Source: an uncultured Verrucomicrobiota bacterium (GTDB lineage: Bacteria; Verrucomicrobiota; Verrucomicrobiia; Limisphaerales; CAIMTB01). Taken from it: a DNA stretch of 64,000 bases. Within the stretch, counting starts at the first letter, position 1; each line of letters starts with the position of its first letter. The stretch is from contig CAZSOV010000001.1 of assembly GCA_964608505.1 (NCBI GenBank), forward strand, positions 32,630 to 96,629, given 5' to 3'. The position numbers and the translations under genes were made by a program. The notes below the pieces were generated by a model, which was not told the origin of the DNA, ran no database searches, and saw only the letters and a program-made list of their open reading frames with translations. Of the stretch, positions 12,662 to 15,600 are shown one piece after another.

Positions 12662-15600
12662 TCAGGCGGGGAATTTCCAACCTTTGGTGCTCGTGAGTTG
12701 GTCGATGACCCAGGTGGCGGCTTCCTGGGCGCGGGTGGCGAGGGCGGACTGGATGGTGGCGTGATCGGGTTCGGTGCCGCCGTGGAGCTGGGCGAGAAGG
12801 GGGGATTTGCCGCCGGACCCCGTCGTGCCGGCGCCGGTGCCCGGGGCGAGGTTGAACTGGCCGAGGTAATAGCTGGCCTCGACGTCGGGCATGGTTTTGA
12901 GCAGGGCGTTCTTCATCTCGACGTTCCAGAGCCAGCCGGCGGTGCGTTGGACGGCGGCATGGACCTTCTGGGCGGCGGCATCCTCGGTGGGGCGGGCCTG
13001 GACGTAGGCGAGGGCGGCGGCGGGGGTGGGGGTGGCGGGGGCGACCTTCTTGACCTCCTGGTGCAGGAACTCCTCGAACTTGAGATGGATGGCGAGGCCT
13101 TGGGAGGCACTGCCTTTGTCGTCGGGCTGCGGGGTGACGTGGAGGCCGGAGTTCTGATGGGCCCGGGCGGAGAGCAGGATGGCGGGCATGGGATTGCCGC
13201 GCCCGGGGCCTTCGGTGTCCGCGATCTCGATGGGCTCGCCCGAGCCGTCGGCCTTGGTGCCGATCTGCTGCACGCCGGTGCCCTTGGCGACGACGCCGGG
13301 GTATTTCTTGGAGGGGAGATCGGGGAAGGGTTTGAAGGAATCCTTCGCGTTGGAGAAATACTCGGGGAGCAGGTACTGGACGACGTGATGGGATTCGCGG
13401 TCGTTGTTCTTGAGATCGTAGTCGCCGTTCGTGAAATCGCCGTGGGTGGCGAGGTGGAGGCCGATGCGGGCGGTGCGGTCGGGCGTGGTGCCCTTGAAAT
13501 GCTTGTCCTGGCGCAGGTCCGCGGTGGCCTGGTTGACGGAGTCGGCCCCGTATTTTTTGGCGCGGTCGCGACCGACGTAGATGGGCCAGGGGGCCATGAG
13601 GTCGGGGCCGACGTGGGGCGGGTTGAGCTCGACCTCGATGTCCTGGATGAAGGTCTTGTTGAAGCGGAGTTCCGAGGCGCCGGCATCCCAGATGGGTTGG
13701 AATCCGCCGGAGGCGAGGCGGTCCTCCTTGGAGGGGGGGGCGGCGCCGGGGGTGGACGAGTTCGCGACGGCGGGGGGCGGGGCGCCGAAGCGGCGGGTGA
13801 GGGTGCGCTGGATGACGTCCCAGTGGCGGTCGACGTTCTTGGCGGTGGGCCAGGAGTTCTGGATGGCCTTGGTCCAGATCGCGCGTCCGTTGTCGGACCG
13901 GCTGTTGACGAAGTGGAGTTCGAGATGGCGGATGCGGATGTCGACGGCGACCTGGGCGGACGCGTTGTTCTTGAGCGTGCCGTTGATGTTCCGGGGCGGG
14001 TCGAAGTCGAGGACGACGCCGGAGCGGGCGGCGAGGTAGAGGCCCAGGTCGACCAGGAATCCCTTGGCGTCGAGGATCTGGGGTTTGGGGGTGGCCTTGC
14101 CGGGGGTGGATTTCCTGGGGGCGCTTGGATCGTCGATCTGGCGCCCGGCGGCGAGGTGATCGATGACCTTGCTGACGGCGGGGATGGAGGCCTGGGTCTG
14201 GGCCTGGGCCTGGGTGGGGGTGCCGGACTCGCGGAGGGTGGCGAGGCGGTCGTCGAGATGGGCGAGGATCAGGGCCTTGGAGGTGTCGAACGGGGCGTCG
14301 GCGGAGACCTTGGCGTTGCGGAGGCTTTGGGCGAGCAGGCCCCAGAGGTGGGACGCGGCGGCGCCGACGTGGTCCTCGAGGTTGGCGACGGCGGCGCGGG
14401 CGTGGGCCTGTTCGGCGCGCTTGGCGAGCGAGGCCCCGGTGCCGGGCGAACTGATCCGTTCGAGGAACTCGCCGATGAGCTCGCCCTTGATCGAGGGCGA
14501 GAACCCGGAGCGATGCGCGCCGAGGACGGGAACGGGAACGGCGCGTCCGGCGGACCGGCTTCCGGCGCGGCCGGCCATGTGGTCGGCGGCGCGTTCCTCG
14601 GACGGGGACCAGCGCAGGCCGCCGTGGGGGGCACCGAGGGAGGGGCGGGCGGGATGGGGCTGGCCGAGGGGCCGGGGGCCCTGTTTCTGGAGGACGTGGG
14701 CGAGCTCGTGTTGCAGGACGCGCGAGCCGGTGCCGGAGGCGGGATCGAGGCCGCGTCCGAGGAAAATATGGCTGCCGGAGGTGAGCGCGCGGGCGCCGGC
14801 CTGGGAGGTGAGCGTGTCGGCGGCGGAGCCCCGGTGGAGGCGGACGTGGGAGAAGTCGTGACCGAAGCGGGACTGGGCGGAAGAGCGCAGGTCGCGCGGG
14901 AGCGGGTCGCCGCGGGAGGAGAGGGTGGAGGGGCGGGGAAGGCCGGCGTCGGAATCGGCAGGGTCGGGAGCGGTGGGATCGGGGTTGGGGCTGGCCTCGG
15001 GCGGCTGGGCGTTTTGCGAGGCGCCGCCGGCATCCGGCACGGCGGCGCCGTCCGCGGGATTGGGTTTCTTCTTCAGGTGATCGAAGAAGACGTCGGGCAT
15101 TTTGGAGATGGTGGCGTAGGACGGGACGGAGGTGGCGTCCTCGGCGGGGGTTTCGGGGGCCCACTCGGCGAGGATGGGATGATCGAAGACGCCGTCGTGA
15201 TCCTCGGAGGCGGTGACGGTGCTGCCGGCGCCGTCGGTGGCGGGCATCTCGACGCGTTGCCCCTGGCGACGGGCGTCGGCGGCGTAGCGGCCTTCGCCGA
15301 GGTAATCGCCGAGCAGGGGCGTGCGCCGGACGACGGATTCGAGGCGTTCGGCCGCGTCGCCGACGGTGGCGGCCAGCTGGTCCTGGAGGGGCGGGAGGAT
15401 GGTTTTTTGCCAGAGCTGGTTGGGGTCGGCACCGACCTCCTGGATCCACTCGGAGAAATGGGCGTAGAGATACTTGGAGATTCCGGAGGCGTCGGCGCCT
15501 TTTTTCAGGGCATCGGCGAGGGCGGCGGCGATGCGCAGGCGGCCCTTGCCGCGTTTGGCGGCGAGCAGGAGCAGTTCGACGAGGGCATCGAGGGCGAGGG

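Follow-up and report, generated by a model that had tools for sequence, protein, structure and literature searches.

DUF4157 is known as a marker of the cargo of contractile injection systems (CIS), and its role is unknown (PMC8213781, PMC11297309). It was proposed to be an autoproteolytic, toxin-releasing peptidase by Zhang et al. (2012), who linked it to Ntox14, a toxin domain of unknown mechanism with PVC-type export together with the PVC-metallopeptidase, and who described this peptidase by a HExxHxxQ-E signature and by three strands and three helices, the Glu being located on the helix after the His helix (PMC3482391). Tme, described by Nagakubo et al. (2024), is a giant protein with an N-terminal DUF4157 that is associated with the spike, ejected and tape-measure-related, and that acts via its C-terminal domain (PMC11126660). 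In AlgoCIS, DUF4157 is dispensable for cargo loading, and its HExxH motif is not needed for the toxicity of Cgo1 in Escherichia coli. The present analysis concerns a stretch of 64,000 nucleotides (referred to below as the window) from an uncultured Verrucomicrobiota bacterium (assembly GCA_964608505.1, contig CAZSOV010000001.1, positions 32,630 to 96,629), in which a CIS operon contains a giant open reading frame (ORF) of 2650 amino acids (aa) with two DUF4157 modules, one near its N-terminus (module 1) and one internal (module 2). It is near certain that the segment under study is module 2 of such a two-module giant protein of a contractile injection system.

The giant protein resembles Tme (BN159_7576 of Streptomyces davawensis) in its size (giants of about 2200-2650 aa), N-terminal DUF4157, putative central hydrophobic helices and C-terminal effector domain, and in that both genes are located inside a CIS cluster beside the tube-initiator and spike genes. 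By the three features that Nagakubo et al. used for such genes (length, N-terminal DUF4157 and synteny) the protein is Tme-like, this likeness being one of layout and of gene order over seven related loci. The two differ in the C-terminal domain, which is Ntox14-like here (RESHH…H motif) and an EndA-like DRGH nuclease in Tme, and in the presence here of a complete second DUF4157 ahead of the effector, the searchable text on Tme mentioning an N-terminal DUF4157 only. An EndA-like identity of the Ntox14-like domain was considered and found unsupported (DRGH in 0 of 127 family members, with RESHH instead). With the PVC-metallopeptidase toxins (Zhang et al. 2012, PMC3482391) the protein has in common the domain itself, placed on the N-terminal side of a toxin domain, a connection with Ntox14 and phage-tail-like secretion, and the absence of an adjacent immunity gene, which is frequent in that class. 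In those toxins the peptidase is N-terminal, or present as a second copy at the extreme C-terminus, whereas the second copy is internal here, about 1800 aa into the protein, and the domain after it is conserved, not polymorphic, within the family. The cargo proteins Cgo1 and Cgo2 (Xu et al. 2022, PMC8894135; PROCIS preprint 10.64898/2026.05.27.728243) likewise combine a flexible segment, a DUF4157 and a C-terminal domain. These are separate proteins of 498 and 1228 aa, carried in the tube lumen, with a free disordered N-terminus as loading signal; in the giant protein the flexible segment is instead internal and acidic, and an intact free-standing version was not found.

From its N-terminus onward, the giant protein is composed of a basic leader, a Glu helix, module 1, a body of about 1600 aa, an acidic linker, module 2, a Pro-rich loop, a second Glu helix, a spacer and the Ntox14-like domain (Table 1). 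The 71-residue string in which the original prediction had recognized a second DUF4157-like module corresponds to aa 1909-1979 and maps exactly to positions 14678-14890 of the minus strand. Module 2 is real: when each module was scanned separately against Pfam, aa 1904-1980 gave a full-length match to PF13699 (eCIS_core, formerly DUF4157; 88.3 bits, E 3.7e-25) and module 1 (aa 109-186) a match of 80.4 bits (E 1.1e-22), both covering positions 1-78 of the 79-position model, for which the curated cut-off is 22 bits. Pairwise alignment of the two modules by BLASTP gave 38% identity over 78 residues with an E of 3e-17, and their similarity is therefore far beyond that of a chance HExxH, the outcome that would have spoken against the prediction. 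The statement that module 2 repeats the architecture of module 1 holds for the homologous DUF4157 core and fails for the Glu helix, which is located upstream of module 1 and downstream of module 2. The long Pro/Asp/Ala-rich linker reported ahead of module 2 was recovered as well (15% Pro and a net charge of -12 over aa 1784-1901), and aa 1856-1900 form the most disorder-prone stretch of the whole giant protein.

In a 38-sequence alignment (A1), the invariant columns of module 2 are H1969, E1970, H1973, Q1976 and G1979, then E2007 and A2010, with E2007 placed 34 residues past the second His (H1973); those of module 1 form a mirror set, H175, E176, H179 and Q182, with E53 and A56 upstream. The four putative zinc-site residues of module 2 are invariant both in this alignment and in another of 25 sequences; HExxH, for its part, is unbroken in all 127 family modules of each class and in all 155 generic DUF4157 modules. 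Module 2 thereby carries the signature HExxHxxQ…E in the form H1969-E-L-A-H1973-V-L-Q1976 … E2007, invariant in both alignments. The ExxAD-type helix found upstream of module 1 can be aligned with an E.EAD motif present in other DUF4157 proteins. An AlphaFold2 (AF2) model of aa 1893-2048, built on a 121-sequence alignment, reached a predicted local distance difference test score (pLDDT) of 80.9 (core above 94) and consists of a helix, a strand, a helix, two strands, the HExxH helix, the less confident Pro-rich loop and a confident helix bearing E2007; the model of module 1 (pLDDT 83) has the same core, with its ExxAD helix upstream and also confident. The predicted fold of module 2 would agree with the three strands, three helices and placement of the Glu given by Zhang et al. 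(2012).

Comparison of the module 2 profile with sequences of the PDB placed the M48 peptidase BepA first, with a weak whole-sequence E of 0.039; in this alignment HELAH stands opposite HEISH, and E2007 opposite the first Glu of EQEAD, the E2007 stretch itself contributing 1.5 bits. By this weak match (per-stretch E 0.84) the BepA counterparts of the motif residues are H136, H140 and E201. BepA was also ranked first by Foldseek with the module 2 model (E 0.89, not significant). The first Glu of EQEAD in BepA is the zinc ligand E201 (PMC7950410), and E2007 would accordingly be read, from the sequence, as the third zinc ligand of module 2. We infer that module 2 and its downstream helix form a complete minimal gluzincin (H1969, E1970, H1973, E2007) with an M48-like zinc site, module 1 probably being a variant whose ligand helix comes from the N-terminal side. 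The likeness to the M48 class (BepA, HtpX, Ste24) consists of a HExxH helix followed by a helix with the third-ligand Glu in an E-x-x-A-D context; the differences are that module 2 is minimal (about 120 aa), that sequence and fold matches are not significant, and that the Glu helix is upstream in module 1 and in part of the wider DUF4157 family. Among 155 generic DUF4157 modules, the Glu helix was found upstream only in 23, downstream only in 88, on both sides in 2 and on neither side in 42, and its occurrence on either side of DUF4157 looks like a permuted arrangement of one minimal zincin. A HPxxxxR plug motif was not noticed in the module 2 unit, although no systematic search for this motif was made. 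The Pro-rich loop between the HExxH helix and the Glu helix is specific to module 2 (family consensus TGPRPLG..H...P..G....GL), and could be a lid or an in-cis substrate. In BepA, a dynamic, regulatory active-site lid occupies the equivalent position.

The two-module layout was then found to be a family trait. A word-indexed search returned a single full-length relative (P0002, 2304 aa, 30% identical, with both modules, Ntox14 and the same gene order). Using aa 1851-2650 as query, phmmer gave 45,368 hits at E <= 1e-3, a set that takes in essentially all of the DUF4157 family; 192 of them reached E <= 1e-30. The family sample consists of the best 150 representatives and is biased by a query that contained module 2 and Ntox14; nearly all of them are proteins of 2100-2650 aa in which the match lies around residue 1450-1900. 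Modules were counted with a DUF4157 hidden Markov model built from the phmmer hits, and exactly two were found in 127 of the 128 representatives of at least 1900 aa. The layout thus occurs in at least 127 clusters (50% identity level), from phyla named in the sequence records as Chloroflexota, Myxococcota, Pseudomonadota, Bacteroidota and Acidobacteriota. Among species-representative genomes, an intact single ORF of the form DUF4157-body-DUF4157-Ntox is present in at least a Myxococcales metagenome-assembled genome (MAG), a Kangiellaceae MAG, Novosphingobium, Primorskyibacter and an alphaproteobacterial MAG, and truncated or frameshifted copies of the giant gene were seen, among the matches listed, in Anaerolineae/Candidatus Flexifilum, Piscinibacter and Puia. 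The two-module layout is a conserved design of this family, and in the window protein a normal trait and not a unique event.

The distance between the modules is narrowly distributed in the family (1425 ± 80 aa, coefficient of variation 5.6%, range 1290-1716) and reaches 1716 aa in the 2650-aa protein, which is the largest of the set (family median 2225 aa). The latter also exceeds the family medians for the head before module 1 (106 aa for a median of 71), the tail after module 2 (670 for 585), the linker from the conserved body to module 2 (121 for 43) and the distance from module 2 to the Ntox14-like domain (399 for 326). In family members the hydrophobic segments cluster 200-400 aa ahead of module 2; in the window protein, hydrophobic 19-mers of the body are located at aa 1153-1171, 1454-1479 and 1668-1686 (Kyte-Doolittle 1.7-2.1). 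The Ntox14-like domain is common to 121-124 of 126 members of the query-biased sample and is characterized by invariant R-E-S-H2409-H2410-x-x-Q2413, R2472, P2477, H2486 and H2492. Its SHH motif presumably recalls the motifs of HNH/EndoVII-type toxins.

Multiplicity of DUF4157 is recurrent beyond the two-module family. Other proteins with two or three modules, at spacings of 150-1000 aa, are P0137, P0003, P0004 and P0005; further multi-DUF4157 loci are L081 (2009-6689), L068 (19091-22273) and L079 (9467-11884), and in one Acidobacteriota MAG two adjacent genes encode two modules each. There are also giants (P0006-P0009; L012, L017 and L028 among others) in which a single N-terminal DUF4157 is combined with another kind of body.

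A mechanism can be proposed in which the long body lines the tube lumen as a tape measure, its C-terminal end at the baseplate, with module 2 at the boundary of the ruler and the effector part. Module 2 would then be a latent, cis-acting zinc peptidase that, after ejection and refolding, cuts a neighbouring flexible segment and frees a C-terminal unit of about 70-80 kDa, containing the Ntox14-like domain, from the membrane-associated body. This reading of module 2 as a latent self-release peptidase at the ruler-effector junction is tentative and is given a probability of roughly 0.35-0.4. It is consistent with the conserved catalytic-base Glu of HExxH, for which a purely structural domain would have no obvious use, and with the disorder-prone segment flanking module 2, which suggests a substrate-like sequence. 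Since DUF4157 is not needed for loading in AlgoCIS, nor HExxH for Cgo1 toxicity, a role after delivery stays open. Proteolytic processing of the giant protein, as raised in the original prediction, is plausible. Phage tape-measure proteins such as T5 pb2 and lambda gpH are long helical rulers of the tail lumen, with their C-terminal end at the tip, and proteins of this kind can carry enzymatic motifs and be proteolytically processed. The likeness of the giant protein to T5 pb2 and lambda gpH is positional and conceptual only, sequence homology being undetected with PHROGs. In a wider version of the self-release reading, which is doubtful, the tape-measure-like protein would be a self-processing pro-effector: two zincin modules with mirror-image Glu helices would bracket the ruler of about 1425 aa and cut at both ends after firing, which would detach the Ntox14 unit, and perhaps the leader too, from a body inserted in the membrane.

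Several observations weigh against self-release by module 2. Its structural matches to known zincins are not statistically significant, and the H1969-H1973-E2007 geometry remains predicted. No report of peptidase activity or of cleavage by any DUF4157 domain was found in the literature examined, and in S. davawensis lysates an antiserum against Tme's C-terminal domain, which is a different domain, detects the full-length protein at more than 220 kDa (PMC11126660). Unlike the classical released toxin cassettes, the Ntox14-like domain is not polymorphic in the query-biased family sample; of the usual marks of polymorphic toxins, variable C-terminal cassettes were not found in this sample, nor an immunity gene next to the giant gene of the window. 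The extra modules of P0003, P0004 and P0005 are not beside a toxin domain; because they lie elsewhere, adjacency of an extra module to the effector is not general. Finally, the tape-measure assignment of the giant protein is drawn from gene position, length and analogy: its body (aa 187-1783) gave no match to Pfam (E <= 1) or PHROGs (E <= 0.01), including tape-measure families, a weak negative since it was obtained by HMMER and the original Tme claim used more sensitive profile-profile methods.

It is possible, if somewhat doubtful, that module 2 acts mainly as a docking element or adaptor, which would, at the baseplate, anchor the C-terminal end of the ruler and the effector to either the tube initiator or the spike complex; module 1 would engage at the other end, so that both modules bracket the length-determining segment, a possibility that we hold with the same reserve. 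The small DUF4157 protein Sle2 of Streptomyces lividans binds both the tube initiator SlpT2 and the cargo Sle1 (PMC13277306), and purified Tme is accompanied by proteins of the spike tip, the VgrG-like spike and the tube initiator. In all examined loci but one (L005) the tube-initiator gene comes directly after the giant gene, the tight inter-module distance is what would be expected of a ruler with two anchor points, and the metalloprotease motifs of DUF4157 are irrelevant to Cgo1 toxicity. A pure binding function would not be expected, however, to keep all zinc-site residues, including the catalytic Glu, strictly conserved in 127 + 127 + 155 modules, and AlgoCIS cargo still loads after deletion of DUF4157. 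Docking and peptidase roles are not mutually exclusive, and the same is true of proteolysis in trans. A trans-acting peptidase, either a toxin directed at proteins of the target cell or a maturation enzyme for particle components or for the module 1 end, is unlikely. In its favour are the invariance of the catalytic residues, the existence of multi-DUF4157 proteins with other spacings, and the toxin role that Zhang et al. (2012, PMC3482391) suggested for a second PVC-metallopeptidase copy where it occupies a toxin-like position; module 2, however, is not at the C-terminal toxin position, being always followed by a spacer of about 330 aa and the Ntox14-like domain, and it is a minimal domain of about 120 aa with no recognizable substrate-binding domain.

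A recent fusion, mis-assembly or read-through of a tape-measure-like gene and a DUF4157-Ntox14 cargo gene is effectively refuted: the linker looks like a junction, canonical cargo starts with a flexible leader followed by DUF4157, and some database proteins of 626-1250 aa hold the C-terminal part only, but the window ORF is uninterrupted, the same fused form recurs in L001 (30% identity), in six further genomes and in all but one of the 128 long representatives, the checked short proteins are fragments or interrupted genes whose breaks are not at the linker, and the two modules belong to two old orthologous classes. The inter-protein junction that the original prediction had placed at the linker is thus not supported by relatives, and no two-gene arrangement with a boundary near 14900-15050 was found among those examined. 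In the short hits (626-1850 aa), module 2 occurs at every possible distance from the start. Most of them come from contigs only 2-9 kb long or fall in a 90% cluster that also contains members of 2100-2500 aa, and they were therefore considered as fragments. P0010 (833 aa), which was found with the last 800 residues of the giant protein, was evaluated as a stand-alone DUF4157-Ntox14 gene and rejected as the tail of a broken giant gene, since its tblastn homology to aa 1628-1770 of the giant protein runs through an in-frame TAG located upstream of the called start and about 190 codons before module 2; on its scaffold (L002, 4.7 kb, from an ENA metagenome), this TAG (720-722) falls in the conserved body, a gap of 10 N is present at 423-432, and the first ORFs match the giant body. 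No intact stand-alone C-terminal unit was found among the short hits examined; P0115, P0152, P0162 and P0171, which are on long contigs, were not inspected, and none of the four has the expected stand-alone layout. The one clear split of the giant gene, in Candidatus Flexifilum affinis (L003, 10050-16365), is due to a frameshift that lies in the body and not at the linker and that leaves two overlapping ORFs; it is either an error of an apparently long-read assembly or a sign of a pseudogene. In an Anaerolineae MAG (L010, 10828-16497), the ORF is without module 1, its N-terminal part being apparently lost.

The age of the arrangement was examined from identities within and between module classes. 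Mean identity is 49% among module 1 copies, 49% among module 2 copies and 38% between the two classes, and modules of the same protein are no closer (0.39) than modules of different proteins (0.38), so that a recent duplication or gene conversion between modules was rejected. Because identity is 0.49 within a class and 0.38-0.39 between classes, the modules can be considered as separate orthologous lineages, and the event that produced them predates the radiation of the family. From the linker onward, the protein shows the canonical cargo layout (flexible leader, DUF4157, C-terminal effector) on a long body, and an ancestral fusion or duplication therefore fits. This part of the original prediction stands for an ancient event; no extant intermediate and no recent fusion were seen. 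The segment ahead of module 2 is acidic in 114 of 127 members, whereas 118 of 121 true N-termini are basic; the C-terminal part is therefore no duplicate of a leader-bearing cargo. As giants with one N-terminal DUF4157 exist and small cargoes of the order leader, DUF4157, effector are well known, the joining of a cargo cassette to a ruler protein in the distant past is a reasonable account.

Table 1. Features of the giant gene and neighbouring injection-system genes (positions in the window)
Feature	Residues (aa)	Position	Strand	Evidence
Giant ORF, Tme-like injection-system effector	1-2650	12662..20614	-	uninterrupted ORF, Pfam domains
ExxAD-type helix upstream of module 1	51-65	20420..20464	-	family-invariant E53, A56; AF2 helix pLDDT ~83-90
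DUF4157/eCIS_core module 1	109-186	20057..20290	-	Pfam match; H175-E176-xx-H179-xx-Q182; AF2 pLDDT 83
Body or putative ruler, between modules	187-1783	15266..20056	-	
Family-conserved C-terminal part of body	1400-1780	15275-16417	-	family comparison
Acidic Pro/Asp/Ala-rich flexible linker	1784-1901	14912..15265	-	composition, charge
DUF4157/eCIS_core module 2	1902-1980	14675..14911	-	Pfam match; H1969-E1970-xx-H1973-xx-Q1976; AF2 core pLDDT >94
Pro-rich loop between HExxH helix and Glu helix	1981-2003	14606..14674	-	conserved; AF2 pLDDT 65-80
ExxAD helix downstream of module 2	2004-2022	14549..14605	-	invariant E2007, A2010; AF2 helix pLDDT 85-93
Spacer, module 2 unit to toxin-like domain	2023-2379	13478..14548	-	
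Ntox14-like C-terminal domain	2380-2595	12830..13477	-	PF15522 match aa 2403-2494, E 1e-13 to 1.4e-14
Sheath gene		26685-28835	-	
Tube gene		26070-26594	-	
AAA+ ATPase, Pvc15/Afp15 class, directly upstream of giant gene		21016..23127	-	
CIS_tube (PF19266) protein, likely tube initiator, directly downstream of giant gene		11980..12630	-	
gp25		within 9155-9844 ORF	-	

The giant ORF shows a uniform GC content by codon position (third-position GC 0.89, for a window of about 71% G+C), an identical protein is present in the NCBI-derived collection (P0001), and no further DUF4157-bearing gene was found in the 64-kb window. The CIS operon around it is encoded entirely on the minus strand. In gene order, a T4-baseplate-like gene and a Pvc16_N cap-like gene are located between the tube gene and the AAA+ ATPase gene, a small baseplate-wedge-like gene comes after the CIS_tube gene, and two Baseplate_J proteins and one Tail_P2_I protein belong to the same operon and strand. 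The slot of the giant gene, between AAA ATPase and tube initiator, is the expected position of a tape measure, and the order sheath, tube, Pvc16, AAA, giant gene, tube initiator, gp25 is conserved in seven related loci. The CIS_tube gene follows the giant gene in L001, L002, L003 and L007-L011, L005 being the sole exception among the loci examined. The gene downstream of the giant gene was also considered as an immunity protein (Imm22), an assignment that was rejected since it encodes the structural protein CIS_tube.

About 400 bp (20615-21015) between the stop of the ATPase gene and the start of the giant gene are non-coding, and in L001 the corresponding genes overlap by 4 bp. L005 (9194-16564, Myxococcales MAG) contains a full-length two-module Ntox14 giant gene with no homologs of sheath, tube, ATPase or tube initiator in the 10 kb to each side; it is thus an orphan copy away from injection-system clusters. 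Three minus-strand ORFs (29003-30985, 660 aa; 30958-31659, 233 aa; 32895-35309, 804 aa) that lie shortly upstream of the sheath gene gave no Pfam or PHROG match. The cluster is flanked by signalling genes (35310-37079 and 36931-37368 on the minus strand, 38884-42967 on the plus strand), encoding a HisKA-REC-adenylate/guanylate cyclase, a REC-only protein, an ECF-type sigma factor and a Ser/Thr kinase with WD40 repeats, which are possible regulators of the injection system. GC skew on the plus strand is very strong over the first 26 kb (+0.2 to +0.39) and negative after about 34-44 kb; this shift follows the change from one coding strand to the other near 38.8 kb, and the strand that codes is markedly C-rich.

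Part of this picture is already known, as both domains are detected automatically by Pfam and the link between Ntox14 and the metallopeptidase dates from 2012. In the searchable literature, a query for two, second, internal or tandem DUF4157 returned only a sentence on two separate DUF4157 proteins of AlgoCIS, and nothing is said there about an internal second module, how strictly it is conserved, its constant spacing or the mirrored placement of the Glu helix. For the window itself the result is mostly clarifying, the second module being an ordinary trait of the family. Its wider interest comes from the fact that DUF4157 is the most specific marker of injection-system cargo, and that giant Tme-like proteins have been proposed as programmable delivery scaffolds through exchange of the C-terminal domain. 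A large subfamily spanning several phyla carries a second copy, with a complete predicted catalytic motif, at the ruler-effector junction, which offers a testable handle on the function of the domain, and the two-module layout bears on the choice of sites for payload fusion. If module 2 is a docking element, it would define the anchoring of the tape measure to the tube initiator; if the giant protein is a self-processing pro-effector, the length determinant of the particle would double as a programmable, self-cleaving delivery scaffold.

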